Below, piece by piece: positions 1-10,491 of a DNA stretch of 10,491 bases. How positions within the stretch are numbered: the stretch's first letter is position 1; each line of letters starts with the position of its first letter. The notes under the pieces were generated by a model that had not been told where the DNA came from, did not search any database, and saw nothing but the letters and a program-made list of their open reading frames with translations. This stretch comes from a virus (Duplodnaviria; Heunggongvirae; Uroviricota; Caudoviricetes). Location of the stretch: IMG/VR virus record IMGVR_UViG_2690316028_000010, one strand, 5' to 3'. A program made the position numbers and the translations under genes.

Positions 1-780
1 TTATGGCCTTGTATTTCCTTTTCTTAACTTCTTTTCGCTCTTTTTTACAAGCTTAATTAACCACTCTGGCTCATCCGACAGTTCGGAGTAATAGCAGTAT
101 TCTGGTATTGCTTTCCAAAATGTTGTTATTGCATCAGCAAATTCAACAAACTGTTCTTCTGTTACATGCAGATCATCATGAGTAGGATTGATATGTCTGC
201 CGCATATACCAGTAGGATGAGGGTAATATTCTGGATGAGTTGATGATAGGAGGCGGTGAGAATTTCCATCACCATGTTTGTACACATTTACGACTAATGC
301 GCACGCTTTGAGCTTATCGCCATAATCAGTTTCATCTATCTTGAGACCGATCCACTCGAGCAGTTTCAACAGTTGATCAAAATTTAAATCCCAAACCATT
401 GGTGTAATGATCTCTTTATCACACCAATGAGACAATTCTCTGATCGTTTTTTCTCGTAACTTTTTATCGAACTGGTGATACATACCCGCAGTTACTGCCA
501 AAAGAACAGTTTCTTGCATTTCAATAAGTGACCAGACGTAGTTTACACCCTCCTCATATGCTTGCTCATAGGCTGCCATTGGGTCGTCAAAATCAGGATT
601 GAAATGCTCAGCGGTATACTCCAGAAACTGTTTCTCTCGCTCCTCCGCCTCTTGGGTCAGATCCCCAAACTGAGACAAAAGTCTCCGTCTTGCTTCCGAA
701 ACATAAAATTCGTGAGGTTCAAGAAAATAGGGCCGATCTACTTTAGCAAGCCAAAATGTCACGAAGTTATCTGATGACAT
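1..780 (-). CDS. hypothetical protein, 259 aa, AT-rich accessory gene; function unknown
   Basis: Complete ORF: ATG at 780-778 (plus 'cat'), stop TAA at 3-1. SD-like 'aagga' about 7 nt upstream on minus strand. Protein has mixed composition, not low-complexity. Local GC is clearly lower than the central block (by-eye count of the first 120 nt ~37%). No family recognised. Confidence 0.6.
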   Translation of the reverse strand: MSSDNFVTFWLAKVDRPYFLEPHEFYVSEARRRLLSQFGDLTQEAEEREKQFLEYTAEHFNPDFDDPMAAYEQAYEEGVNYVWSLIEMQETVLLAVTAGMYHQFDKKLREKTIRELSHWCDKEIITPMVWDLNFDQLLKLLEWIGLKIDETDYGDKLKACALVVNVYKHGDGNSHRLLSSTHPEYYPHPTGICGRHINPTHDDLHVTEEQFVEFADAITTFWKAIPEYCYYSELSDEPEWLIKLVKKSEKKLRKGNTRP

Positions 781-924
781 AACTTATCCTTGATAATTAT
801 TGTATGGATAGATTATCCAGAAATTTGCGAACTGAGTCGGTCATTTTTTTTTGTGTGCGCGTGATGTAATAAAGGTTCAGGAATATACTGTCAGTTTACT
901 GAAAAACTGGCAACAGAGGCGGTT
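781..924. promoter_or_regulatory. divergent intergenic region between the 259-aa gene (minus) and the 75-aa gene (plus); presumed to hold both promoters
   Basis: 144-bp AT-rich gap with a T9 run (843-851) between two outward-facing start codons. No confident -35/-10 pair could be assigned by eye. Confidence 0.3.
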
Positions 925-1152
925 ATGAGCGAGAGTTACGAGTTCTCAGCAGGTTGTTTTTTGAAGCTATCAATATCTTCAGGGTATTTCACTATCAAAA
1001 TTCAGGGAGATCTCCCCGCTCGTGCAGCTAGTGCCATCTTGGCAGATGATGTCGAGCAGGTTTTATCTCAACTAGACAAATGTTTTCAGCTGAGTAATAG
1101 GCAACGAGAAGGGATCGTTAAGTATCTTATGTCGAAGGGGATGCAGCCTTGA
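925..1152 (+). CDS. hypothetical small protein, 75 aa
   Basis: ATG at 925 preceded by SD 'agagg' (915-919). Stop TGA at 1150-1152 overlaps the next gene's ATG (TGATG), indicating translational coupling. Confidence 0.5.
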   Translation: MSESYEFSAGCFLKLSISSGYFTIKIQGDLPARAASAILADDVEQVLSQLDKCFQLSNRQREGIVKYLMSKGMQP

Positions 1153-1610
1153 TGACTTGGATCACCCAAACAGATAACTGGACAGGGATCGCGGCGTGGG
1201 CGGGTTTTGCTTTGTCCGTATTTCAATTACTAAAATCCAGAACATCGCTAAGGCTTTATCTCGGATGTGATCAGCACGAGGACAGGATATACGTTTCGAA
1301 CATAAGCGCACACGATGTAACGTTGAGTGCAGCCGGTGTGGTAACAGCCAGTGGACGCCTTAGAATGTTATCCGACGAATATTCGGACGAGAACATGATC
1401 ACACCGATGCTGCCAAAAAGATTGAAAGCACGAGACGAAATGGTCTTGAACGTGCCATTCATAAATAAGGCTCATCACAACAAAGTGCATCATCGTGGCG
1501 GGGTTTATATCAAAACATCTGACGGCAAGATGTTCAGTGATGTTTGTTGGATCAAACGCCAATGGTGGTGGTTACTGTCTGTAATACTACGAGACACAAA
1601 GCGATACTAA
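1152..1610 (+). CDS. hypothetical membrane-anchored protein, 152 aa from ATG 1152 (ORF track starts at TTG 1149)
   Basis: Start ATG 1152 overlaps upstream stop. One N-terminal hydrophobic stretch 'WTGIAAWAGFALSVFQLL' (~1182-1235) consistent with a single TM helix or signal anchor; remainder hydrophilic with a His-rich patch (HHNKVHH). Stop TAA 1608-1610. Confidence 0.5.
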   Translation: MTWITQTDNWTGIAAWAGFALSVFQLLKSRTSLRLYLGCDQHEDRIYVSNISAHDVTLSAAGVVTASGRLRMLSDEYSDENMITPMLPKRLKARDEMVLNVPFINKAHHNKVHHRGGVYIKTSDGKMFSDVCWIKRQWWWLLSVILRDTKRY

Positions 1611-1639
1611 GTTGATTGATAGTCCGAGGTGATGTTCTG

Positions 1640-1657
1640 CCCAGCGTAGTTGCTGGG
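1640..1657 (+). terminator. weak hairpin downstream of the 75/152-aa pair (6-bp stem cccagc/gctggg, 6-nt loop)
   Basis: Inverted repeat 1640-1645 / 1652-1657. No following U-tract, so at best a weak terminator or RNA structure. Confidence 0.2.
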
Positions 1658-1690
1658 TGATACACCTTCAATGATTCTTGTTAGTGTGTA

Positions 1691-1699
1691 GGGGGGGGG
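1691..1699 (+). repeat. homopolymeric G9 tract immediately upstream of the 72-aa ORF start
   Basis: Sequence 'gggggggggc' then ATG at 1701. Upstream in-frame stop TAG at 1689-1691 places the tract in the 5' UTR / ribosome-binding region, not inside coding sequence. Confidence 0.9.
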
Positions 1700-1700
1700 C

Positions 1701-1919
1701 ATGTTGGATTTTAAAGCTGAGTTTGTTGGCGGCAGCCATAGCGGCGAGGTTATATCACCGATGTCCGAGGTAGAACTTAATAAACTAGGGTATAGAGTCC
1801 ATTTACGTGGTGCCCCCTCTGGCGATGAAATGCCTGTACACGTTGTTGTACCTATTGAATGGTCAGCGGATGAAGCACACAGAGCCATAATGCAGCGCTG
1901 GGGTAAACGCAGACGGTAG
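1701..1919 (+). CDS. hypothetical small protein, 72 aa, basic C-terminus (WGKRRR)
   Basis: ATG 1701, stop TAG 1917-1919; G-rich SD-like sequence directly upstream. Composition more protein-like than the overlapping minus-strand ORF 1607-1930 (S/P/T-rich). No family recognised. Confidence 0.45.
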   Translation: MLDFKAEFVGGSHSGEVISPMSEVELNKLGYRVHLRGAPSGDEMPVHVVVPIEWSADEAHRAIMQRWGKRRR

Positions 1920-2301
1920 ATGTCGCGCATTTCTCTTAAACTGGCTGCTGTGTTTGGTGCTAATTATCCATGCAAAGTGGCCTAAGCTACGTGGAAGAAT
2001 GATCAGTTTCGCATTATTTGGTTCAAGGAGGGCTCCCCCACAGCCTCACTCTCTGAATGCAAAACAGCCCCACAATCCCACTGTTAAAAGTCCCAGCTTG
2101 AAAATTGCACGCTTATGGTTGCCCCTCCCTCAACTCTATAGCTCGCCCGCGCCCCCGTGTGCATGTGCGTGCCCGCGCGTCAGGGGTCGCTGAGAAACCC
2201 TAAGATTTTGCTCATCCGAGACAAGCATTACCTGCACCTGTAAAACGCGAAATTACCTCTCAAACACCACACATAAACCCACTTTGCATTGAGATCTGAC
2301 A
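1920..2301. other. ~380-bp GC-rich, apparently non-coding spacer with C-rich runs and an alternating purine-pyrimidine tract
   Basis: Only ORF here (1954-2193) is Pro/Ala/Arg-rich and low-complexity. Contains 'gcccgcgc' twice (2146-2153, 2171-2178) flanking 'gtgtgcatgtgcgtg' (2157-2171). Sits upstream of the capsid-like operon. Confidence 0.4.
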
Positions 2302-2649
2302 ATGACCTTACTGACACCTGAAAACGTGGCAGCGGCTAGGGCTGCCCGTAGCGCGAGGATTGAACACTGGAAAGCCAACGCCAGCCAGCTTAAGCAGGAC
2401 TTTGCTGACGAAGCGCACTGGCGGCGGCTCGCCTCACGCTTCGGCGTGCGTATGCCCTCGGCGTATGTTCCCGGCTCCGAGCTGCGATTGCTGCGCCGGG
2501 CGGCCAAACGCGCGGGCATCTCTGGTGCTGATATGCGCGATGCTTTTGGTGGGGGCGTTGCGCACCTGCACGAGCTTAATCCCCATTGGCCTGCCTTCGC
2601 GCTTATCGGCCTGATTCTTGAGATCGCGGCTGAAAAAGCTGCTGCCTGA
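2302..2649 (+). CDS. hypothetical protein, 115 aa, Ala/Arg-rich with hydrophobic C-terminus; first gene of the capsid-like operon
   Basis: ATG 2302, stop TGA 2647-2649. Codon third positions G/C-biased, consistent with real coding in this GC-rich block. Function not recognised; a small scaffold or packaging-associated protein are possibilities only. Confidence 0.5.
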   Translation: MTLLTPENVAAARAARSARIEHWKANASQLKQDFADEAHWRRLASRFGVRMPSAYVPGSELRLLRRAAKRAGISGADMRDAFGGGVAHLHELNPHWPAFALIGLILEIAAEKAAA

Positions 2650-2717
2650 TTCATCCCATTCTCTTTTCCCCTTTTCCATAAATCGCGCTGGCTAACGCTG
2701 GCGCGGGAGCTATTTCT

Positions 2718-3713
2718 ATGACTGACAATGTTTATACCCCTGACCAATTCCGCCCGCACTGGGGCGGTGTAGATGCTGACAACGACATTCACATTGAAGC
2801 GTATGACCGGGACGTTCAGACCCGCCTTGAGGCAAAGAGCGTGTTTCTCGCCGAGGGGCTGAGCACATACAAGCCGCTGAAAAACAGTAATCAGTATCGT
2901 GTAGACCGCCTGAGCGGAGATCTGGAGGTGAAGGGCAGAACCGCAGGGCAATCGCTGGAGCCTACCGCCGTTAAGTCGGACAAGCTGATTATCTCTGTGG
3001 ATACGCTGAGCTATATCCGCATCCCGATTGACTATCAAGACGACTGGACAGCGCCCACCTTTCGCGCAGAGCTGAGCCGCAACATGGGGACAGCCCATGC
3101 AAAGTTCTACGACGAAGCGCACACTATCCAGCTAATCAAAGCGACTGACTTTGTACCGCCGCCTACGTTGCAACCAACGTTTAACCCGCTGACGGATAAT
3201 GTTGTCTCGCTCGACCTGACAACGGGGAGCGAAGAGGATGCGGCTAACGAACTGGTTCACGCTATTAAAGCTGCTGTTAATCGATTCCTAACTGAAAAAG
3301 ATATTCCGGTGGCGGAGCTGTGCCTTCTCATCGACCCAGCTTGGTTCAGCATCCTGATGGAACATAAGAAGTTGATGAACGTCCGTTACAGCCGGGATAG
3401 TGGCAATGATTACGCATGGCGTCGCGTTGGCTATGTCGCTGGGGTGCGAGTTATTGAGCTGAACAGTTACCCGCAGGAAGCCATTACCGCGCATGAACTG
3501 GGCGCTGATTATGATGTGACCGCAGGGGAAGCGCTGACACGGGCGACGCTGTTCCGGCCTGCGTCTGTACTTGTGACAGTCGAAGCGCAGAGCGTTATCA
3601 ATCGCCAGTGGGATGATGAACGCGAAATGACAATGGTGATGGACTCATATCGCCTGTTCAATGTTGGGCTGCGCCGCCCTGACTGCGTTATAAATTTCCG
3701 ACAAGCTGCATAA
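2718..3713 (+). CDS. putative phage major capsid protein (HK97-fold / T7 gp10-like), 331 aa
   Basis: ATG 2718 with SD 'gggag' ~8 nt upstream; stop TAA 3711-3713. Several segments resemble T7-type capsid proteins from memory (e.g. 'IPVAELCLLIDPAWFSILM', C-terminal 'GLRRPDCVINFR'). Followed 17 nt later by an HNH gene, a common capsid-module neighbour. Similarity is by recall, not alignment. Confidence 0.5.
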   Translation: MTDNVYTPDQFRPHWGGVDADNDIHIEAYDRDVQTRLEAKSVFLAEGLSTYKPLKNSNQYRVDRLSGDLEVKGRTAGQSLEPTAVKSDKLIISVDTLSYIRIPIDYQDDWTAPTFRAELSRNMGTAHAKFYDEAHTIQLIKATDFVPPPTLQPTFNPLTDNVVSLDLTTGSEEDAANELVHAIKAAVNRFLTEKDIPVAELCLLIDPAWFSILMEHKKLMNVRYSRDSGNDYAWRRVGYVAGVRVIELNSYPQEAITAHELGADYDVTAGEALTRATLFRPASVLVTVEAQSVINRQWDDEREMTMVMDSYRLFNVGLRRPDCVINFRQAA

Positions 3714-3729
3714 CAAAAGGGGCCGAGCC

Positions 3730-4161
3730 ATGAATATTGATGCTTATGCCCCGGAGCTGTTGCGCTCTTTGTTTCGGTACGATGCGAAGACTGGCCGCCT
3801 GTTCCATGCAGTAGACCGGATCGGAGCCAACAAGCGGATTTACGCTAAAGCCGGGGAACTGGCCGACACGGTAACGGACAGCGCCGGATATAGGCGCGTA
3901 TCTGTCCGCATCAATGGCAAATCTCATGCGCTATACGCCCACCGTGTCGCCTTCATCATTGCTAATGACGGTATCCCTGCCGGGATGCAAATCGACCATA
4001 TCAACGCGGTACGCGATGACAACCGCCTTATCAATCTCCGCACGGTTACGCCACAAGAGAACCAGCACAATTACCGCAAAGCCAAGGGTTATAGCCACCA
4101 TGCCTGCTCTGGCAGATGGGAGGCTTACATTCGCGTTGGTGATCCACCGCGCGATAAATAA
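3730..4161 (+). CDS. HNH endonuclease (HNH_3-type, phage-associated), 143 aa
   Basis: ATG 3730 with SD 'aaagggg'; stop TAA 4159-4161. Clear HNH signature 'IDHINAVRDDNRLINLRTVTPQENQHN' and the N-terminal 'GYRRVSVRINGKSHALYAHRVAFI' pattern typical of this family. Confidence 0.85.
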   Translation: MNIDAYAPELLRSLFRYDAKTGRLFHAVDRIGANKRIYAKAGELADTVTDSAGYRRVSVRINGKSHALYAHRVAFIIANDGIPAGMQIDHINAVRDDNRLINLRTVTPQENQHNYRKAKGYSHHACSGRWEAYIRVGDPPRDK

Positions 4162-4200
4162 GCCGCAATCCGTGAGATAAATGGACACGGTGCGGCTTTT
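4161..4200. terminator. bidirectional intrinsic terminator candidate between convergent HNH and tape-measure genes
   Basis: Imperfect hairpin: 'agccgca' (4161-4167) pairs with 'tgcggct' (4191-4197), inner stem 'ccgtg'/'cacgg', followed by TTTT (4197-4200) on plus strand and an A/T-rich run on the other side. Lies in the 66-bp gap between the two converging stop codons. Confidence 0.5.
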
Positions 4201-4227
4201 CAGATACTGCAAAGGAATTACAGATTA

Positions 4228-6711
4228 TCAGTCGTAAGCAACCCGGCGCTTACGGGCAAGGATAGCTTCCAGTGCTCTTTCAATCTCAGGAATGGACAGC
4301 TTAAGCGCATTGGCCACATCCGGTGCTGGTGACTTGTTCTTGCCATCAATATAGATATTGTTAATGACGTTAATCCCGCCGCCTGCGCCTGCTGGTGAAT
4401 GAGAGTCCCGGCCTCTGGGTAAGGTAAGGTCGCCGCGCATATAGCGCTCTAATACGGGGGGTACTTTCGGCACATCCGGCACCATCATATCAGCCAGCCG
4501 CGAGGAGGCTTTCAGCGCCAGTGATGCAGACTGACCAATGCCAATCGCCGCCCCTTCTGCGATATTAGACCCGAAGCCCATAAATACACGGCTTGGCGAG
4601 TGAATCCCCAGCTTTTCCTTGAACCAGCCGCCGACACTGTCACCCATCTCAGTGACGGTATTCTTGAGAGACTCCCACTTGTTTTTGATACCGTTCACCA
4701 GTCCATCAATCAAGTGACCACCAAACTCAGTAAACTGGCCGGGAAGGTCGATGTTAAACCACTTCATGACCCCCGCAAACGCCTTGTAGAACAGCCCCAG
4801 CGGCGACCAGTTCAGGATTAGCTTACTGACACCAAGAACCCCGCCGTTAAAGGCTGTTTTCACTTCCTCCCACCGCTGCGAGAACCATCGGCTTATCGCG
4901 CCCCAGTTGCGGTAAATCAGGTACGCGCCCCCGGCGATGATGGTTATCGCAATGCCTATGGGGTTCATTAACAGCGCCCTGCCAAACCAGAGGAAAGCCT
5001 TTGCCACCACCATTACGCCTCTGAACAGTCCACCCGCCAGCGCTTTACCCAGCATTCCGGCTCCCTTCGCCACGGTACTGAATCCGGTAGCCAGCCAGCG
5101 CAGCTTTCCGCCGTCGCTCAGGGCGGTTTTGAGCAACAGCCAGTTAGTGCGCAGCAGTACGGCGTTTTTCCACAACCCGGCGAACGGTGATACCAGCAGA
5201 TTCAGGCCGAGTTTCAGCCCGACAGTGGCGATTTTCAGCCCCAGCAGTACGCCCACGGTTTTTGCCACACCCTGAACAATGCCGGGATGTTGCGCTATCC
5301 ATTGCCCGGTGGAATGAATCAGCGGAATCAGTTGCTGCGTCATTGACACGAACGAGGGAGACAGTTGACTGCCAAGGGTAATGGACAGTTCGCGGGTGCT
5401 GACCATCAGTGCTTTGGTCGCCTCCAGCGGCGATTTCAGTCGCTCCGTGTAGGAGGAGGCCAGCAGGTCTTTATCCGCCGCCTTAAGTGCGCCAGCCCTG
5501 ATTTCGCGGTATTTGTCCATGTTGGCGAGCATCGGACGGACAAACGCCATGACCTGCATATCGGCGAACATCTCACCCAGACCGAAATTCTTTGCCAGTT
5601 CCTGTAACGCAAGGTCGCGGGAGTTATCGTCCTTGATTTTCATTGCTTTCTTGAAGCCTGCCAGTGCTTCCGGGCTTTTGGCCTCCAGATACCTGCCCAT
5701 GACGCTTATCATGCCCTCAATGGGCGAGACGCCAGCAGATTTATAAGCCATGAGTGACCCCTGAAGGTCAATCCCGATATCGGCAAACTGTTTCTGCGTG
5801 TCGCGGGCAAAAATCTTGGTGAGGAAGTTACGGAAGTTGTTACCAGCCTCGTCAGATGACCCGGCACCAATTCGGGCAATCTGTAAACTCGCTCCGATTT
5901 CCGCCATCGCTTCTTTACCTTCGGCAATACCGCGCATCATCGGGGCAAGAGATGGCATCCATTTCACCTGGTCAGGTATTTCAAAAGACCCTTGGTCGCC
6001 TGCAAAGGCCATGATGTTCTGTACTTTGGCAAACTCTTTAGCGCTGCCATCCATCGAGTTTTTCCAGACGGCGGCAACCTTCGCCCATTCCGTCCCTGTG
6101 GTGCGTGTGGCAGTAGCGGCGCGGGCTATATTGGGCATGAAGCTGCCAATTTCGGACACACTGTCGATATTGTCACTGATAAGCGAGCCTACGGCGTCCT
6201 GTAAGTCGCTCTGGTACTGGTTGTACTTGAGCGACCATCCCCGGATTTGCTGCCCCAGACTGGCGCGGGTTTTATCGTCATATTTCGCCGTGATCGACAT
6301 ATCAATCATCTTGTCGTCGAACGTAGCCGACTGCTGAATCGCCGGGGAAACGAGGCTGTAAGCGGCTTTGGCCTGCGCCCACGTCTCAATTCCCTGTCCA
6401 TAAAGCGCCATCCGGTTAGCTCTCAGGGCATCGGTTGTGGCAGACGCTGCCGACAGGCGGGACTGCTGGCGGTTTAGTTGCTCCAGCGTTCTGCCTACCC
6501 GTTGCAGGTCATTGTTCAGGCGTGAGGCCACGCCTGAACCTACCTGACCGTAACGCTGCATGGCGCGTGACAGGCTGCTTTGTTGCTCGGTCAGGCGGCG
6601 TGACGTGTCGCCGAGAGAATCAAGCGCCCGCCGTGTGCCGCTGACGGCGGAACGGAAGCTGCTCCCGACAATACCGCCAATCATCACACCAACAGAAAAA
6701 TTATTGCTCAT
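4228..6711 (-). CDS. phage tail tape-measure protein, 827 aa
   Basis: ATG 6711-6709 with SD 'ggagtg'; stop at 4228. Helical N-terminal region, long central Gly/Ala/Leu-rich hydrophobic segment, and C-terminal 'GIHSPSRVF'-type motif that I recall from tape-measure proteins. Size is typical. Confidence 0.75.
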   Translation of the reverse strand: MSNNFSVGVMIGGIVGSSFRSAVSGTRRALDSLGDTSRRLTEQQSSLSRAMQRYGQVGSGVASRLNNDLQRVGRTLEQLNRQQSRLSAASATTDALRANRMALYGQGIETWAQAKAAYSLVSPAIQQSATFDDKMIDMSITAKYDDKTRASLGQQIRGWSLKYNQYQSDLQDAVGSLISDNIDSVSEIGSFMPNIARAATATRTTGTEWAKVAAVWKNSMDGSAKEFAKVQNIMAFAGDQGSFEIPDQVKWMPSLAPMMRGIAEGKEAMAEIGASLQIARIGAGSSDEAGNNFRNFLTKIFARDTQKQFADIGIDLQGSLMAYKSAGVSPIEGMISVMGRYLEAKSPEALAGFKKAMKIKDDNSRDLALQELAKNFGLGEMFADMQVMAFVRPMLANMDKYREIRAGALKAADKDLLASSYTERLKSPLEATKALMVSTRELSITLGSQLSPSFVSMTQQLIPLIHSTGQWIAQHPGIVQGVAKTVGVLLGLKIATVGLKLGLNLLVSPFAGLWKNAVLLRTNWLLLKTALSDGGKLRWLATGFSTVAKGAGMLGKALAGGLFRGVMVVAKAFLWFGRALLMNPIGIAITIIAGGAYLIYRNWGAISRWFSQRWEEVKTAFNGGVLGVSKLILNWSPLGLFYKAFAGVMKWFNIDLPGQFTEFGGHLIDGLVNGIKNKWESLKNTVTEMGDSVGGWFKEKLGIHSPSRVFMGFGSNIAEGAAIGIGQSASLALKASSRLADMMVPDVPKVPPVLERYMRGDLTLPRGRDSHSPAGAGGGINVINNIYIDGKNKSPAPDVANALKLSIPEIERALEAILARKRRVAYD

Positions 6712-6742
6712 GGTTCACTCCGGTTGAGTGGTTCGGTGGGCG

Positions 6743-7336
6743 TCATTCAGTCAGGGACAGGCCGCTGATTCCGGTAATCCCGGCAATTTCTTCGCTGACG
6801 GCTGCCAGTTCACTTTCAAGCCCGGTGCGTTCGCTGACCAGTGCCGCCACGGTCTTACGGCGCTCTGCCAGTGAGGGAAGTTTGTCATTACCCCACGTCA
6901 CGCTCTTATCCTTCTTAAGCGCTTCGGTCAGTCGGGTGGCGACCACATCCGGGAAGAAAAAGCAGAGCTTGCGCATTACCGCCATCCCGGTATCAGCCGG
7001 GGGGACGTTTCCTCCCAGCCCCACCAGACGGAACAGACCGGAAATATCGCCGTTCTCATTTTCCAGATTGCCCCAGCGTTCGGCGTTCCCTTCACCGCCG
7101 GAACCGTTGCAAAGAGCACGCTTGAATGACTGATATTCTTCCTGCCCGAATCGCTCAATATATTCAGGAATAAAGGAACAGTAATCATTAAGTGATAACG
7201 GCATATCCTGTAATGCGGTTATTTCGCCATTAATATCACCAATGCGACGAGAGAGCTTTTCTTTCTGCTCATTCAGGGAGGTAAGGTTATTTTTAACGGC
7301 GTTCAGTGCTTCAATGAGGGAAATAACAGGTTTCAT
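6743..7336 (-). CDS. hypothetical protein, 197 aa, coiled-coil-like N- and C-termini; possible scaffold-like or tail-assembly accessory protein
   Basis: ATG 7336-7334 lies 1 nt after the upstream gene's TAA (taaAATG) with SD 'ggag' inside the upstream gene's 3' end; stop TGA 6745-6743. Heptad-like ends; no slippery heptamer seen at the 3' end. Confidence 0.5.
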   Translation of the reverse strand: MKPVISLIEALNAVKNNLTSLNEQKEKLSRRIGDINGEITALQDMPLSLNDYCSFIPEYIERFGQEEYQSFKRALCNGSGGEGNAERWGNLENENGDISGLFRLVGLGGNVPPADTGMAVMRKLCFFFPDVVATRLTEALKKDKSVTWGNDKLPSLAERRKTVAALVSERTGLESELAAVSEEIAGITGISGLSLTE

Positions 7337-7337
7337 T

Positions 7338-7952
7338 TTAATAACTCCAGATAAAAGGTGTAGTGAGGGTGAGCGCTTCGGAATAGGAGACGTTGCAGGC
7401 TTCGCTTACATCCTTTATTAAAAGGTGCTGCGCTGCCCTCTGGCTGTCGGCTATGCCGTCGAGCTCTGAGAAATAAACGTGTGATTCATTGTGACCAAAA
7501 CAAACCGGGTAAGCGCTTTCCATAAACTCCACCTGCTCAAGCCCCTTTACGGCTGGCGGCTGTGCGCCGAGAAAACCAATATGGCGAAGATACCAGGCAC
7601 CAGTTCCGGCCGGGTTACGCGCTTCTCCCGGCCTGTAGAAAGCGGCAGACACTTTTTTATATAGACCTGACTGAACCATATCCAGCAACCTGTTATCAGG
7701 CTTAACCAGCGCGAAAAGTCTGCCGTTTTTACTTATCAGTCCGGTGGTTTCACCATAGGCGGGACTGTTACTGGCCGGATGCCCCAGGCACAGCGGCGCA
7801 CCATAACCCGCGCGATGATAGCCGTTATAGGCTGCTGCCATGTTGTCGATATCCTCGTCGGAAAAGCTGATTTCCTGCCCCGCCATCGCGGTATGTGTTC
7901 CCGCCCGGAATATCTCAATAGTTTTCCAGTTACCAATATTGATATCTGTCAT
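7338..7952 (-). CDS. putative GPO-family prohead protease / capsid scaffolding protein, N-terminal protease-like domain, 204 aa
   Basis: ATG 7952-7950; stop TAA 7340-7338. Recalled resemblance to P2 gpO N-terminus: 'FRAGTHTAMAGQEISFSDEDIDNMAAAY' vs gpO 'FRIGVEGDTCDGRVISAQDIQEMAETF', and 'LCLGH' vs gpO 'INLEH'. Shorter than P2 gpO (~284 aa). Confidence 0.55.
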   Translation of the reverse strand: MTDINIGNWKTIEIFRAGTHTAMAGQEISFSDEDIDNMAAAYNGYHRAGYGAPLCLGHPASNSPAYGETTGLISKNGRLFALVKPDNRLLDMVQSGLYKKVSAAFYRPGEARNPAGTGAWYLRHIGFLGAQPPAVKGLEQVEFMESAYPVCFGHNESHVYFSELDGIADSQRAAQHLLIKDVSEACNVSYSEALTLTTPFIWSY

Positions 7953-7953
7953 T

Positions 7954-8481
7954 TTATATTTGTCCCTGTTTCATATCGCGGCACTCTTTGTTTTTCTTAC
8001 GCTCGGCGGCAATAATCTGATAAATCCACTGAATAGAATTGCCATATTTCCTGGCTAATTCCCGATGAGTCATCCCTTGTTTGTAATCGGAAAATATCCT
8101 GGCATTTCTGTCGAAAGAGTTTCTGGCTGCGCCATTAGGTATATAGAAATTGTTACCTTTAAAGACCCTTCTAAGGTGTTCTGTAATTTCCGGGGAAATG
8201 ATTTCGGCCTGAGCCGAAAAGCAATGTATTGTAAGCAAAGCCTGCGCTATCACACCTGTAAGCTCATGCAGAAAAGATGTTGCTTTAGGGGCGTCTTCAC
8301 ATTCTATTGGCATGTAATTCTGGCAACCACCAAGATTATCAGATATATGCAAAACAATTTTATTTGCTGCACTACTTGCCTGAAGTTGTGAATAGCCCGC
8401 ATCAGTCAGAAAATCTTCAATCGCATCCCCCATTTCCCCCAGAGTGTCAGATGTTGCGTACAATCCCTCTCTTGTAATCAT
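7954..8481 (-). CDS. Mor/C-family transcriptional activator (Mu middle/late activator family), ~175 aa from ATG 8481
   Basis: C-terminal region matches the Mor pattern: 'NFYIPNGAARNSF' (cf. Mor 'QVYIPRG'), 'RIFSDYKQGMTHRELARKYGNSIQWIYQIIAAERKK' (HTH). ATG 8481-8479 has SD 'gagg' ~7 nt upstream; the ORF-track start at 8487 is a GTG too close to the SD. Stop TAA 7956-7954, 1 nt before the next gene's start. Confidence 0.75.
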   Translation of the reverse strand: MITREGLYATSDTLGEMGDAIEDFLTDAGYSQLQASSAANKIVLHISDNLGGCQNYMPIECEDAPKATSFLHELTGVIAQALLTIHCFSAQAEIISPEITEHLRRVFKGNNFYIPNGAARNSFDRNARIFSDYKQGMTHRELARKYGNSIQWIYQIIAAERKKNKECRDMKQGQI

Positions 8482-8509
8482 AATCACACCTCGGTAATGA
8501 TAAAGATGT

Positions 8510-8614
8510 GCGCTAAAAAGGCTTTATAAAGCTTTATGAGGCGTCTTTCTGGTGACAAATCAGCACATACACCATTAACGCTTTAAAATGGCTTACAGGC
8601 TTTTTTAGCGCGGG
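8510..8614. promoter_or_regulatory. regulatory region upstream of the Mor-like gene: 12-bp palindrome, tandem 'gctttat' and flanking 10-bp inverted repeats
   Basis: 'ataaagctttat' perfect palindrome at 8526-8537; 'gctttat' at 8521-8527 and 8531-8537. 'gcgctaaaaa' (8510-8519) is the inverse of 'tttttagcgc' (8602-8611). Promoter hexamers not confidently assigned. Confidence 0.35.
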
Positions 8615-8681
8615 TTACTAATGTGGATTAAGAATATGGTTTTGGGGCGGGGATGTTTTTTAATGTACTTTAGATATGAAG

Positions 8682-8703
8682 AAGCCCCTCAGAGGAGGGG
8701 CTT
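8682..8703. terminator. GC-rich hairpin (9-bp stem, 4-nt loop) immediately downstream of the 96-aa gene; candidate intrinsic terminator
   Basis: 'aagcccctc' (8682-8690) pairs perfectly with 'gaggggctt' (8695-8703), loop 'agag'. Sits 17 nt past the TAA at 8722-8720; the flanking run on the minus-strand transcript is only moderately U-rich. Confidence 0.45.
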
Positions 8704-8719
8704 GCGGGATTACGCCAGA

Positions 8720-9010
8720 TTATTGAGGTCGTCTGTCTTTCCTCAATCCATCAAGTAGCGCCATGGCATCAGTAACCAGTATGCCAGCAGCATCCGTAAC
8801 CATCGAAACATCAGAGGATGCACATGATTTATCCATACCTAATGTTGACGCAAAATCAAGTAGCTTACGAACTGCGTCAAGTCGATAGGTGGCAGAGTCG
8901 TAAATTAACTCCTGATTAGCATCAGTCTTTAAAAACATAATATCATCAGAGGCACCTTGCGAAAATGACGGCATCGCACGGAAAGTATTTTGAGTTTCAG
9001 CCTGTTTCAT
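8720..9010 (-). CDS. hypothetical protein, 96 aa
   Basis: ATG 9010-9008 overlaps the upstream gene's TGA (ATGA, coupling); SD 'ggagg' ~8 nt upstream; stop TAA 8722-8720. Confidence 0.5.
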   Translation of the reverse strand: MKQAETQNTFRAMPSFSQGASDDIMFLKTDANQELIYDSATYRLDAVRKLLDFASTLGMDKSCASSDVSMVTDAAGILVTDAMALLDGLRKDRRPQ

Positions 9011-9744
9011 TGTGCAGTCCTCCGGCTAATAGCGAATTTATTATAAACTTCATAACTGGCAGCATTCAGTCCGGGGTTGTATTTATCAGCCAGAGCACAG
9101 GCAATCATATGTTCAATAAATTTTGTTATTGCGTTAAGTTCAGTTTCGTTTGAATAACGCAATGCCACTTTGAGTAACTCGCGGCAATATTGTTTTTTAT
9201 TCCCTTCGATTTGGCCTGATTTTTTTATTCCTGCCTTTTTATCTGATTCATCCTCAACAGGCAAAGATGGGATATCCTCTTTATTGGTTAGCGTTCTTTC
9301 GCAAATAATATCTTCACCAGATTGAATTACGCGCTGCAACTCTCTGGCGCTCATACGAAGAATATCATCAAGCGTGTGGTCGTTATATGCCCCACCACTG
9401 GCAAGGAGATCCAGTGTCACTTCATCCAGCCGGGCAAGCAGGTTTAACTTCGTTTTGCCGATACTTGTTTTGGCAATTGCGGCTCGGGGGGTATTGGTTA
9501 CGCCAAATATCAGAGCAACCCGCATAGCATTATGGGCTTCACGTTTATTAATTCCCCCCACTGAAAGCGCCTTTGCAAATTCCTCATTTGTTTTTGTTGC
9601 TTCCTTAAGTGCCAGCATCTCTTTACCACGATGCACTAAAGTTTCAGTCGGGGTTGGCAAAAGGAGTACAGCATCTAAAATTTTTTCCCGAAGTACATCA
9701 ACTTGGCTTGCGATGCATGAACGGTTAGACTTGTTGATACCCAT
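9007..9744 (-). CDS. hypothetical protein, ~245 aa from ATG 9744 (ORF track begins at TTG 9765); candidate early/regulatory protein
   Basis: ATG 9744-9742 preceded by SD 'gagga' ~9 nt upstream; stop TGA 9009-9007. Acidic/Lys-rich linker mid-protein; no P-loop or other catalytic motif recognised. Divergent from the RHH gene. Confidence 0.5.
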   Translation of the reverse strand: MGINKSNRSCIASQVDVLREKILDAVLLLPTPTETLVHRGKEMLALKEATKTNEEFAKALSVGGINKREAHNAMRVALIFGVTNTPRAAIAKTSIGKTKLNLLARLDEVTLDLLASGGAYNDHTLDDILRMSARELQRVIQSGEDIICERTLTNKEDIPSLPVEDESDKKAGIKKSGQIEGNKKQYCRELLKVALRYSNETELNAITKFIEHMIACALADKYNPGLNAASYEVYNKFAISRRTAQ

Positions 9745-9774
9745 GATTGTTATCCTCAATAACAATGGTGGTCA

Positions 9775-9809
9775 GGCAGGATGTGATACTGAACCTATCA
9801 TGTCCTGCC
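9775..9809. promoter_or_regulatory. imperfect dyad symmetry (13-bp arms, 11/13 matching, 9-bp spacer) upstream of the 245-aa gene
   Basis: 'ggcaggatgtgat' (9775-9787) vs 'atcatgtcctgcc' (9797-9809). Could be an operator or a 5'-UTR hairpin of the minus-strand transcript. Confidence 0.3.
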
Positions 9810-9840
9810 GCTTGCGGTTTTACATCTACTTAATGTAATG

Positions 9841-9877
9841 TACGTACCATTGATTTCAATCTAAACAATGGTACGTA
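9841..9877. promoter_or_regulatory. perfect 12-bp inverted repeat with 13-bp spacer (candidate operator) overlapping the RHH gene start codon
   Basis: 'tacgtaccattg' (9841-9852) and its exact reverse complement 'caatggtacgta' (9866-9877). The right arm covers the ATG at 9868-9870. Located in the divergent promoter region. Confidence 0.55.
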
Positions 9878-10071
9878 TCATGTCAAGAGTAAAAGATAAC
9901 ACGCCTAAAAATTCCGCAGGGCGTTCCCCGACCTTCCAAATACGTATTACACCTGAACTTAGGGAACAGCTTGATAAAGAAGCTCTTAAAGATGGTGTAA
10001 GTTTGGCCAATTGGCTCAAAGGCATTGCACGAGATGAACTACGCAGGAGAGGTATTTCTCCAAAAGGGTAG
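9868..10071 (+). CDS. ribbon-helix-helix (Arc/MetJ-like) DNA-binding protein, 67 aa; putative repressor
   Basis: 'FQIRITPELREQLDKEALKDGVSLANWLKGIARDEL' fits the RHH beta-strand plus two helices (cf. Arc 'FNLRWPREVLDLVRKVAEENGRSVNSEIYQRVMESF'). ATG 9868 (alternative ATG 9880), both with weak SD; stop TAG 10069-10071. Confidence 0.6.
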   Translation: MVRIMSRVKDNTPKNSAGRSPTFQIRITPELREQLDKEALKDGVSLANWLKGIARDELRRRGISPKG

Positions 10072-10086
10072 GGCTAATCAGGTACA

Positions 10087-10476
10087 AAAAGCGAAAACGT
10101 TTTCGCTTTTATGGCTAAGAGAGCGGATGCACTCATTAAAGCGGACAGCGCTGTCCGCCTCCAATCAGCAAAAAAACAAGATGGTTCCTCCAAAACGCTC
10201 AACGTTGAGCGTTACGTTATTCCGACAAAAGCGCAGGCGCTTGCGCTTTTGAAAGGGATCAACACGGCTTTCAAACCGGACAACGTTGACCGCTTTAAGG
10301 AATCACTGTCGGCTGAGCAAAAACGGCAAGCGCTTGCCGTTTTAGATTCGCGGGGCGGTAAACGTTTACCGTTCTGTGTCAATTATGTTCAAAAGCGAAA
10401 GCGCTTTCGCATTTTCTCACCTAAAGCGGCAAACCTCCTCTGTCTTAGCTGGAAAAACGACATCGCTGTCGTTTTT
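10087..10476. repeat. array of eight hairpin-capable palindromes of one family (A-tract, CG-rich core, T-tract)
   Basis: P1 10087-10110 aaaagcgaaaac|gttttcgctttt (perfect, 24 bp); P2 10141-10158 gcggacagc|gctgtccgc (perfect); P3 10194-10213 aacgctcaac|gttgagcgtt (perfect); P4 10227-10250 (1 mismatch); P5 10320-10343 aaaacggcaagc|gcttgccgtttt (perfect); P6 10356-10371 cggtaaac|gtttaccg (perfect); P7 10391-10414 (1 mismatch); P8 10453-10476 aaaaacgaca-tcgc-tgtcgttttt. Symmetry kept while sequence differs between copies. Confidence 0.85.
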
Positions 10477-10491
10477 AATCCGAGGTTCTAA
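10111..10491 (+). CDS. ORF of 126 aa overlapping the palindrome array; coding status doubtful
   Basis: ATG 10111 directly after palindrome P1, stop TAA 10489-10491 at window end. Repeated peptide motifs (KAQALALL, KRQALAVL, KRKRFRIF) are direct consequences of the DNA palindromes, so the frame may be open by chance. Confidence 0.3.
   Translation: MAKRADALIKADSAVRLQSAKKQDGSSKTLNVERYVIPTKAQALALLKGINTAFKPDNVDRFKESLSAEQKRQALAVLDSRGGKRLPFCVNYVQKRKRFRIFSPKAANLLCLSWKNDIAVVFNPRF

Follow-up and report, generated by a model that had tools for sequence, protein, structure and literature searches.

Mini-Mu elements are engineered deletion derivatives of phage Mu that are moved by helper transposase and ATPase in trans and are packaged by the headful together with adjacent host DNA. 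These laboratory elements and their 'mini-muduction' were reportedly described by Faelen and Toussaint and by Groisman and Casadaban. Here, we analysed a stretch of Caudoviricetes DNA of 10,491 nt (IMG/VR record IMGVR_UViG_2690316028_000010; the whole stretch is called the window) by family scans with Pfam, PHROG, NCBIfam, Rfam and PADLOC and by PDB sequence search. The window probably consists of two nested mobile elements, the inner of which would be a transposase-dependent, BcepMu-like hitcher. Like a mini-Mu, this inner element has two phage ends and no transposase, and mobilisation in trans and headful packaging are proposed for it. Unlike a mini-Mu, it is natural, conserved across genera and of the BcepMu lineage (Tn552-like, 6-bp duplication) rather than that of MuA (5-bp), and it has its own switch, rearranged and diverged paralogues and an array of cis-sites.

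The satellites P4, PICI/SaPI, cfPICI, PLE and PICMI resemble the inner element in being small, lacking most virion genes, depending on a helper and carrying morphogenesis paralogues. For example, the activator of the element could cross-talk with helper late promoters in the manner of P4 Delta and P2 Ogr; its small-terminase-related protein recalls TerS, Ppi and Rpp of PICIs; and its helper cis-sites recall the cos or pac sites in certain SaPIs and PICMIs. In contrast to the element, which has no integrase and moves by transposition, known satellites have their own recombinase and att sites and mostly their own origin after excision. Pfam, PHROG and NCBIfam gave no match in the inner element to core genes of P4-like, PICI, cfPICI or PLE satellites, nor to Sid, Psu, AlpA, Pri-Rep or Delta. 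By its gene content, the element would be a helper-dependent hitcher or satellite that uses transposition, without the integrase, att and core-gene features of those four classes. To our knowledge, the established satellite families have all been found and defined via integrases and replication modules, and we know of none with both a tape measure and an array of helper operator-like sites.

MITEs (miniature transposable elements with inverted repeats) and other non-autonomous transposons offer a further parallel, having ends that match those of a partner, no transposase, a duplication of the partner's length and many insertion sites. The element differs from them in spanning 7.8 kb with about nine conserved protein genes, and its autonomous partner is a phage, not an insertion sequence or transposon. 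With the genus Bcepmuvirus (BcepMu, phiE255, PhiKM and the prophage between aroA and ycaL of sequence type (ST) 131) it shares termini, the 6-bp duplication, late-promoter-like motifs and a palindrome family, as well as homologous tape measure, protease domain, Mor, DUF3102 protein and terminase N-terminus. Compared with these phages, it lacks transposase, ATPase, Gam, lysis, large terminase, portal, capsid, sheath, tube, baseplate and fibre genes, and its gene order differs; each phage has one family palindrome, the element at least 11 (about 14 by eye).

Insertion sites, termini and the missing transposase

The two elements meet at position 4140 of the window. Left of it lies DNA of a tRNA-Gly island found in LR536431; this homology stops at 4139/4140, within the open reading frame (ORF) of an HNH endonuclease (3730-4161, plus strand) whose 3' end is replaced by the inner element. 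The HNH gene of LR536431 is intact (175 aa) and holds the uninterrupted target site, ...CGCGTTGG followed directly by TGGTGTTC. To the right of this point, the window corresponds to a unit inserted in ynbC of strain AW1.7. The inner element runs past the window end, and the window holds most of its approximately 7.8 kb (complete copies measure about 7.6-7.9 kb). The window as a whole was found in none of 5,426 complete Escherichia coli genomes by megablast, while its parts occur separately.

An earlier note on this DNA, made from the letters without database searches, had read the window as a satellite-like or mosaic element retaining capsid- and tail-size determinants, or else as a decayed prophage. 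The genes that it named are present: a tape measure (PF10145, E=5e-20), a Mor activator (PF08765, E=2e-25), an HNH protein (PF13392) and a capsid protein. The absences it reported were also borne out: none of the window ORFs scanned against Pfam and PHROG matched a terminase, portal, sheath, tube, baseplate, fibre, lysis protein or integrase. Its view that this is no ordinary prophage segment agrees with the complete genomes, where the tape-measure/Mor unit is a discrete insertion of about 7.6-7.9 kb flanked directly by host genes. A single mosaic that keeps capsid, protease, HNH and tape measure has in its favour that all of these lie within 10.5 kb without terminase, portal or tail-structure genes, but we consider it very improbable and already refuted by the empty site and by the parts occurring on their own. 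In many genomes, the capsid/HNH part is found without the tape-measure/Mor part and vice versa; the 4140 boundary is a transposon terminus interrupting the HNH ORF, and the site is empty in LR536431; and the capsid is of podophage (Autographivirales) type while the other genes are of BcepMu myophage type. Since the named genes are shared out between two elements, the retention argument combines genes of both. The 827-aa tape measure is of the usual length for the phage group (821 aa in KP12 and 846 aa in BcepMu). What survives of the satellite idea is a small element with diverged copies of helper morphogenesis and regulatory genes, not the window as one mosaic.

Complete or partial copies of the inner element were found in ynbC (AW1.7), in glvBC (LR536431), between dacD and sbmC (MS 115-1 and CX strains), in ybhJ (KCJ3K291), between serW and infA (ST131 strain ZH063), and between conjugation genes of an integrative and conjugative element (ICE) or plasmid-like region of Yersinia intermedia (5504-13298 of the extracted locus). 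Other sites include a 2-hydroxyacid dehydrogenase gene, two Salmonella sites and several IMG/VR contigs, so that the contexts comprise genes, intergenic DNA and one ICE. Both junctions could be read at ten insertions (from E. coli, Salmonella, Yersinia and unnamed assemblies), and each of these has a perfect 6-bp target duplication: AGTGAA, TACATC, GCCGAA, ACTCAT, GTAATT, GCTAAG, GGATGC, AAATGC, ACAGCC and GGTGCA, the last of which was deduced from two contigs of a single isolate. Including one-sided junctions such as that of the window, there are more than 12 distinct insertion sites. Empty sites were seen in LR536431 and in JJ1887, whose serW-infA site is empty, yet which carries a helper-type prophage at aroA-ycaL. 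The integrase and att sites that the earlier note would have sought in the flanks do not belong to the inner element, which has neither, inserts at many sites with duplications and moves by transposition.

Homologues of its 197-aa and DUF3102-like proteins, none of which bears a name, were found in E. coli, Citrobacter, Enterobacter, Salmonella, Yersinia, Pseudocitrobacter, Cronobacter, Yokenella, Pectobacterium and Dickeya. The Yersinia and Salmonella loci have the same element architecture, and the Dickeya copy is more divergent. A metagenome contig of 7,799 bp (IMGVR_UViG_3300029165_000015) starts and ends exactly at the element termini, and one isolate contig also stops exactly at the tape-measure-side terminus, which implies heterogeneous flanks or multiple copies in those samples. 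Like the copy in the window, the one in the Yersinia intermedia ICE sits within another mobile element. The ZH063 copy, carried by a subset of ST131 genomes, spans 12001-18374 of the extracted locus and is degenerate, its tape measure being deleted and IS5 inserted.

The tape measure and protease-like protein pointed to Bcepmuvirus (BcepMu, phiE255, Escherichia phage PhiKM and Klebsiella phage KP12), and the termini of the element lead to the same phages. At the tape-measure side (4140-4184), where the homology common to all copies starts, the terminus reads TGATCCACCGCGCGATAAAT (4140-4159) and is followed by a second subterminal repeat, CCGTGAGATAAATGG, at 4170-4184. Every copy begins TGATCCACCGCGCGATAAA... 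and ends ...ATTTATCTCA(T/C)GTCTAATCA; the right junction of the window is expected to read ...TCTAATCA, then CGTTGG, then TGGTGTTCGCC. E. coli JJ1887 carries a complete PhiKM-like prophage of 37,045 bp between aroA and ycaL, with the 6-bp duplication GAAGAA, a fibre-side end TGATGCGCCGCGCGATAAATGCACTCTATCTTGTGCGATAAATGG and a Mor-side end TGATTAGACTTGAGATAAATGACAGGGAATAAGTGAGATATTTATGGGA. At the fibre-side ends of the element and of this prophage (TGATGCGCCGCGCGATAAAT..GTGCGATAAATGG), 17 of the 20 terminal bases agree, with equal spacing of the second repeat; at the Mor-side ends, the match is TGATTAGAC(A/T)TGAGATAAAT..GTGAGATA(A/T)TTATGGGA. Both element ends align with those of the JJ1887 prophage and PhiKM, including the spacing of the two subterminal repeats per end, and the target duplication of element and prophage is equally 6 bp. 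The subterminal repeats are presumed to be transposase-binding sites.

The phage transposase matches rve (PF00665) and the phage ATPase PF13401, and the BcepMu annotation describes the former as Tn552/IS1604-like. No rve/DDE, AAA or integrase match was obtained in the element proteins scanned, which comprised all annotated AW1.7 genes and, through its longer window version, the 79-aa array ORF; no homologue of a replication gene was detected in the inner element either. Because the element has phage ends and the phage duplication length without a transposase, it would have to be moved by a helper transposase in trans, and we strongly infer that BcepMu-like phages provide it, as nothing else in sight could supply the activity; the many insertion sites and the contig that ends at both termini lend indirect support. 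A helper-type transposase is present in 639 of the 5,426 complete E. coli genomes (~12%, including ST131).

Autonomous movement by a new kind of transposase, for which three element proteins without assigned function (the DUF3102-like, the 96-aa and the 197-aa protein) are candidates, is to our minds the most far-fetched explanation. The element has the ends and the duplication length of a phage whose transposase is a classical rve/DDE enzyme; the DUF3102 core is modelled as resembling a ParB/KorB DNA-binding domain rather than a catalytic fold, and the 197-aa protein is predicted to form a helical bundle or coiled coil.

Proteins, control regions and palindrome array

The tape-measure side of the element is an operon on the minus strand. 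The tail tape measure protein (4228-6711, minus strand; 827 aa; PF10145, TIGR01760) is 71% identical to that of the JJ1887 prophage over 699 aa, with a divergent C-terminus, and has 47% mosaic identity to that of KP12. The ratio of nonsynonymous to synonymous substitution rates (dN/dS) between copies is 0.04-0.12; this strong conservation shows that the tape measure matters. A shortened tape measure giving shorter tails, as a comparison with the 983-aa JJ1887 protein would have it, was rejected, the KP12 and BcepMu proteins having the same length as that of the element. The JJ1887 protein (9546-12497 of the extracted locus) carries an internal duplication of about 85-150 aa relative to KP12, BcepMu and the element, and should give a longer tail than those of its relatives.

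Upstream lies a 197-aa protein specific to the element family (6743-7336, minus strand), which is helical with long terminal helices and has no family match. It has 34 homologue clusters, whose named sources are without exception Enterobacterales, and a dN/dS of 0.13-0.25. Its AlphaFold2 model is helical (predicted local distance difference test score, pLDDT, 74.7), and in a fold search it matched nothing but generic coiled coils; a role as adaptor or scaffold-like protein would be speculation.

The next gene (7338-7952, minus strand; 204 aa) encodes the 'head protease' of the earlier note. The homology is real, but it covers the protease domain alone (positions 31-173 of the 415-position phrog_976 profile). 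This domain is 46% identical to the first 134 aa of the 371-aa protease/scaffold of the JJ1887 phage and corresponds to the N-terminal part of Mu I and BcepMu gp32, without the C-terminal scaffold part of about 225 aa (Mu Z, gp33). GHP (H58), S102 and H124 are invariant and common to the phage proteins, and dN/dS is 0.10-0.20.

The Mor-family activator (7954-8487, minus strand; PF08765) is 33% identical to the Mor of the helper prophage. Its alleles fall into two classes, one of 116-118 aa and one of 175-177 aa with an N-terminal extension, to which the window copy belongs. Members of the long class have only 56-63% identity even where the neighbouring genes of the two copies agree at 93-98%, which suggests a specificity determinant under diversifying selection or allele exchange. 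Two further minus-strand genes complete this arm, namely a conserved 96-aa protein of unknown function present in all copies (8720-9010) and a DUF3102-like protein (9007-9765; phrog_1748; 245-252 aa among copies and 252 aa in the window), the latter 34% identical to the phage protein; dN/dS is about 0.1 for the 96-aa protein and about 0.1-0.36 over the two.

On the other side, a ribbon-helix-helix (RHH; Arc/YlcI-like) DNA-binding protein of 63-67 aa (9868-10071, plus strand) has a weak match to PF05534, also matches phrog_228 and NF041551, and is a candidate repressor; it is identical in AW1.7 and carries the PGAP label 'HicB antitoxin'. Its gene diverges from the leftward operon across a 102-bp promoter/operator region (9766-9867), in and around which inverted repeats at 9775-9809 and 9841-9877 overlap sigma-70-like hexamers. 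The repressor-operator switch that the earlier note had proposed is consistent with this 67-aa gene and its operator-like repeats. Past the window, the arm ends in a 114-aa 'Gp27 family' protein, which is 45% identical over the first 55 residues to a DUF3486 small terminase (its DNA-binding N-terminus).

A second control region (8488-8719, minus strand) precedes the operon of Mor, protease-like protein, 197-aa protein and tape measure. It contains a terminator-like hairpin (8685-8697), the motif TCTAAAGTACATTAAAA at 8658-8674 and the palindrome GCTTTATAAAGC at 8521-8532. The motifs TCTAAAG-N3-ATTAAAA and CTTTATAAAG are common to the element and the region upstream of the protease (head) gene of the helper. 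The first is exact there and, with three mismatches at most, recurs in the gaps that precede the holin, tail and baseplate operons; it has seven matches in the prophage locus where 1.75 are expected, four of them just upstream of late genes or operons and three elsewhere. The second, too, lies upstream of the helper protease gene. We propose that the element operon may be a late operon answering Mor-family activators, including that of the helper.

Between copies from different genera, most element proteins are 82-98% identical, compared with 33-71% identity to the phage proteins. The Yersinia copy has 64-83% identity in the 197-aa protein and protease domain, and Mor and the 96-aa gene exist as distinct alleles among copies. 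Relative to the ends, the gene order differs from that of the phage: transcription of Mor and DUF3102 heads for the fibre-side end and that of the terminase-like gene for the Mor-side end, so that the element cannot be derived from the phage by deletion alone. By these measures the element proteins are diverged paralogues under purifying selection, not debris.

This bears on the second possibility raised by the earlier note, that the inner unit is a BcepMu-like prophage reduced by deletions and no longer functional or selected. Such decay would account for the ends and several gene families held in common with BcepMu-like prophages, for the plainly degenerate ZH063 lineage (tape measure deleted, IS5 inserted) and for carriers that mostly lack a resident helper. 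We nevertheless regard it as improbable, since deletion alone does not yield the gene order; proteins so distant from those of the phage remain mostly 82-98% identical among copies across genera; the ORFs are unbroken and their dN/dS is 0.04-0.36; one architecture is seen again and again, at over 12 independent sites with intact duplications; and the 197-aa protein, RHH switch and palindrome array are missing from the phage.

The structured repeat array reported in the earlier note is real, with four perfect palindromes of at least 18 bp in 10080-10491 where shuffled sequences give 0.003, and none in the other 10 kb of the window. The array (10087-10491) has in its window part the first nine units of 20-32 bp, with centres AGC·GCT or AAC·GTT (the dot marks the centre) and arms that are A-rich and T-rich. 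These units lie at about 10087-10110, 10139-10160, 10194-10213, 10226-10251, 10273-10296, 10318-10345, 10356-10371, 10391-10414 and 10453-10476; seven are counted with one mismatch and nine by eye. Complete copies with the gp27-like arm have 11 palindromes by scan and about 14 by eye. The arms vary between units and between copies, yet stay symmetric.

In the BcepMu-like phages examined, the family is represented by a single palindrome per phage, which lies at a conserved position some 350-390 nt inside the DUF3102 gene. It reads CCAAAACGCTCAGC·GCTGAGCGTTTTGG in JJ1887 (30262-30289) and PhiKM (28403-28430), AACCAAAAGCGCAAGC·GCTTGCGCTTTTGGGT in KP12 (27917-27948) and TTCAAAAGCGGCGTT·AACGCCGCTTTTGAA in BcepMu gp10 (7035-7064), all in extracted-locus coordinates. 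These phage palindromes are perfect and 28-32 bp long, encode PK[RA]xAL[AS][VL]LG, and sit in a gene that immediately precedes that of the transposase; their letters change from phage to phage while the symmetry is kept. The array word CAAAACGGCAAGC·GCTTGCCGTTTTG (that is, CAAAACGGCAAGCGCTTGCCGTTTTG) was found in 18 IMG/VR phage contigs, most of 33-40 kb. In all 18 it lies inside a DUF3102 homologue at a conserved position (one contig starts within the word), and a transposase gene adjoins DUF3102 in each of the 15 contigs whose extracted stretch reaches it. A degenerate scan showed that at least four more array words are exact intragenic sites in other phages, one of them sharing even a single asymmetry. 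As the exact matches lie in different phages, the element would have assembled a library of sites of several helper lineages. The array co-occurs with the gp27-like arm and is absent from the arm variant with a second DUF3102 paralogue.

From these positions we infer that the palindromes may be parS- or operator-like sites for DUF3102 proteins, and the phage palindrome looks like an undescribed cis-acting site. The pairing resembles ParB-parS and KorB-OB in its predicted ParB/KorB helix-turn-helix, in its palindromic sites and in having one of them inside its own gene, as parS often lies in parB. It differs in that there is no ParB Pfam match and an N-terminal CTPase domain was not detected, and in its context, which is a transposable phage or hitcher rather than partition. 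The array may serve to recruit, sense or titrate a helper early protein; we found nothing in the literature on the function of DUF3102, and the array gives a concrete hypothesis for it. An RNA hairpin or terminator seems less likely: in nearly all units the palindrome extends through the central 4-6 bases, which a free loop would not require, and identical words lie inside a phage coding region. Searches of the array and element with Rfam covariance models, at gathering and E-value thresholds, returned nothing credible.

An ORF runs through the nine palindromes (10111-10491, plus strand); it has 126 aa in the window and, owing to a stop codon, 79 aa in AW1.7 and MS 115-1. Its translation echoes the DUF3102 motif (KAQALALLKG, KRQALAVLD), and its dN/dS of 0.3-0.6 is drawn from 6-8 substitutions only. 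Outside the part covered by the window, AW1.7 has two inverted repeats of some 40 bp each (26623-26667 and 26869-26920 of the extracted locus), placed between its palindrome array and its gp27-like gene. They enclose about 200 bp with a terminator-like hairpin and may represent an invertible segment, a large stem or a MITE. In KCJ3K291, Salmonella and one Yersinia copy, the RHH gene, the array and the gp27-like gene are replaced by two small ORFs and a second DUF3102-like protein (316-318 aa, phrog_4623), at 12194-13633, 6159-7598 and 6252-7413 of three extracted loci.

A possible helper-dependent life cycle

In our preferred explanation, the inner element would be non-autonomous, derived from BcepMu-like temperate phages and dependent on them. 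A central RHH/operator switch would separate two arms transcribed outward. The first would comprise the DUF3102 paralogue and the 96-aa protein and, beyond the terminator and late-promoter-like motifs, Mor, the protease domain, the 197-aa protein and the tape measure; the second, the RHH gene, the palindrome array and the 114-aa protein with the gp27/DUF3486 N-terminus. When a helper infects or is induced, its early proteins may act on the element ends and the array, and its Tn552-like DDE transposase and ExeA-type ATPase would move, and presumably replicate, the element in trans. The Mor proteins of helper and element would then turn on the element late operon. Replicative transposition would amplify the element, which the headful machinery of the helper might package with adjacent host DNA unless the capsid is remodelled, and the paralogues of protease domain, terminase N-terminus and tape measure could bias or disrupt helper assembly. 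The fuller picture, in which the element represents a family of transposable satellites of Enterobacterales that exploits helper transposition and virions, bears a multi-specificity array of helper sites and effects mini-Mu-style transduction, is one that we put forward tentatively, as a possibility with somewhat less than even prospects.

Several observations weigh against this explanation. Mobilisation by the phage transposase, packaging and any effect on helper virions are predictions from sequence, and the IMG/VR matches are themselves computational predictions. Packed into a headful capsid of about 37 kb, an element of 7.8 kb would travel with mostly host DNA and, once injected, would still have to obtain transposase from another source. 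The tape measure has the usual length and no explained role, and the 197-aa protein shows no BLASTP similarity to the phage protease/scaffold, so that it was rejected as a split-off scaffold half. The ParB/KorB-type core of the DUF3102 protein rests on a medium-confidence model (pLDDT 63.9 overall) with moderate scores, and the symmetric but variable arms of the array could arise from hairpin or cruciform formation instead of protein binding. Lastly, among element carriers only AW1.7 has additional helper-type tape-measure matches, and most carriers have no resident helper. The element-type tape measure occurs in 11 complete E. coli records (about five lineages) and the helper type in 636; co-residence with a helper was expected, and among the element-bearing complete genomes AW1.7 alone shows it. 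The scarcity of resident helpers fits a satellite awaiting an infecting helper and a stranded element equally. With so few of them, the element would rely on helpers that infect the cell rather than simply on a resident prophage, a habit common in P4 and PICIs, or may act mainly as an interference device.

The latter is the substance of a further alternative, in which a helper-dependent transposon spreads within cells and by ordinary transfer and carries anti-phage cargo instead of being packaged. Decoy protease, tape measure and terminase N-domain, together with a sponge of DUF3102 sites, would sabotage incoming BcepMu-like phages. The rarity of resident helpers is in keeping with this; moreover, the truncated protease and truncated terminase resemble dominant-negative forms, and an array of helper cis-sites could titrate a helper protein. 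Assembly-interference defences occur in prophages and PICIs, as two reports indicate (PMC10884400, PMC11364771). On the other hand, no PADLOC defence family was matched by the 10 proteins searched, and near-identical ends at many sites in many genera imply efficient horizontal transfer, for which phage packaging is the simplest route. The two lifestyles are also compatible, known satellites leading both. We judge this alternative unlikely, though not negligibly so.

If the satellite explanation holds, the idea of satellites or 'hitchers' extends to transposable phages, and current satellite and prophage finders would miss such elements. In a non-exhaustive search of the literature, neither a satellite nor a natural non-autonomous derivative was seen described for Mu-like or BcepMu-like phages. 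Natural mini-Mu-like elements could drive high-frequency transduction of neighbouring DNA in E. coli, Salmonella, Yersinia, Enterobacter and Citrobacter, and the transduced host DNA would include other islands that carry element insertions. The element also explains stray 'tape measure', 'Mor', 'HicB antitoxin' and 'Gp27' genes annotated amid disrupted host genes.

The outer tRNA-Gly island and the window ends

The outer element occupies positions 1-4139 in two blocks that are 100% identical to LR536431 by blastn. The left block (1-2231, low GC) corresponds to 970503-972733 of that sequence, just downstream of tRNA-Gly, and the right block (2229-4141) to the second part of the same island; in the extracted locus they align to 15001-17231 and 23121-25033. 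They meet at a deletion junction with 3 bp of microhomology (2229-2231), where 5,889 bp of LR536431 encoding a resolvase, a DEAD-box helicase, small ORFs and a scaffold-like protein are missing. GC content is 39-47% at the left and right of the window and 52-59% in the middle. The AT-rich left flank noted earlier is thereby confirmed, but its 'cargo' belongs to a separate, integrase-bearing island.

The left block contains a 259-aa phrog_19541 protein (1-780, minus strand) and small ORFs at 925-1152, 1149-1610 and 1701-1919 (plus strand); no tRNA gene was found in the window. In the right block, a 115-aa protein of unknown function (2302-2649, plus strand; phrog_21723, E=1e-52), whose gene is kept in many E. 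coli, lies just upstream of the capsid gene. The capsid-like protein of the earlier note is a genuine major capsid protein (2718-3713, plus strand; 331 aa; phrog_267), with PDB matches to 23sf gp17 (E=5e-78) and 8eld (E=8e-75) and 57.7% identity to the capsid of Escherichia phage Lidtsur, genus Bonnellvirus. Judged by these matches, it is of Autographivirales podophage type. The truncated HNH gene (3730-4139, plus strand; PF13392) follows, its ORF stopping at 4161 inside the inner element.

In LR536431 the island continues beyond HNH with an endonuclease VII and a tyrosine integrase, and spans 15001-28175 of the extracted locus. Its full set comprises integrase, major capsid protein, scaffold-like protein, HNH, endonuclease VII, DEAD-box helicase and resolvase; portal, protease and terminase were neither annotated nor found among the six island proteins scanned. 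Capsid-forming islands of the cfPICI kind combine an integrase with capsid, protease, portal, connector, HNH and TerS genes. The tRNA-Gly island may be a capsid-encoding satellite, a decoy of lytic podophages or a defence island.

A search of genome contigs for the exact HNH/element junction gave no match, and the source contig, LLYK01000102.1 of GCA_001484375.1, was found via the chimeric HNH ORF. It ends 19 bases past the window end (10491 corresponds to 16762 of 16781), inside a palindrome, in AACCGCTCAGCGCTGAGCGG. Several other assemblies with the same HNH junction also break within or just before the array, which appears to be an assembly obstacle that explains where the window ends. An ENA contig has the same HNH::element junction in an undeleted island, so that the insertion predates the 5.9-kb deletion.

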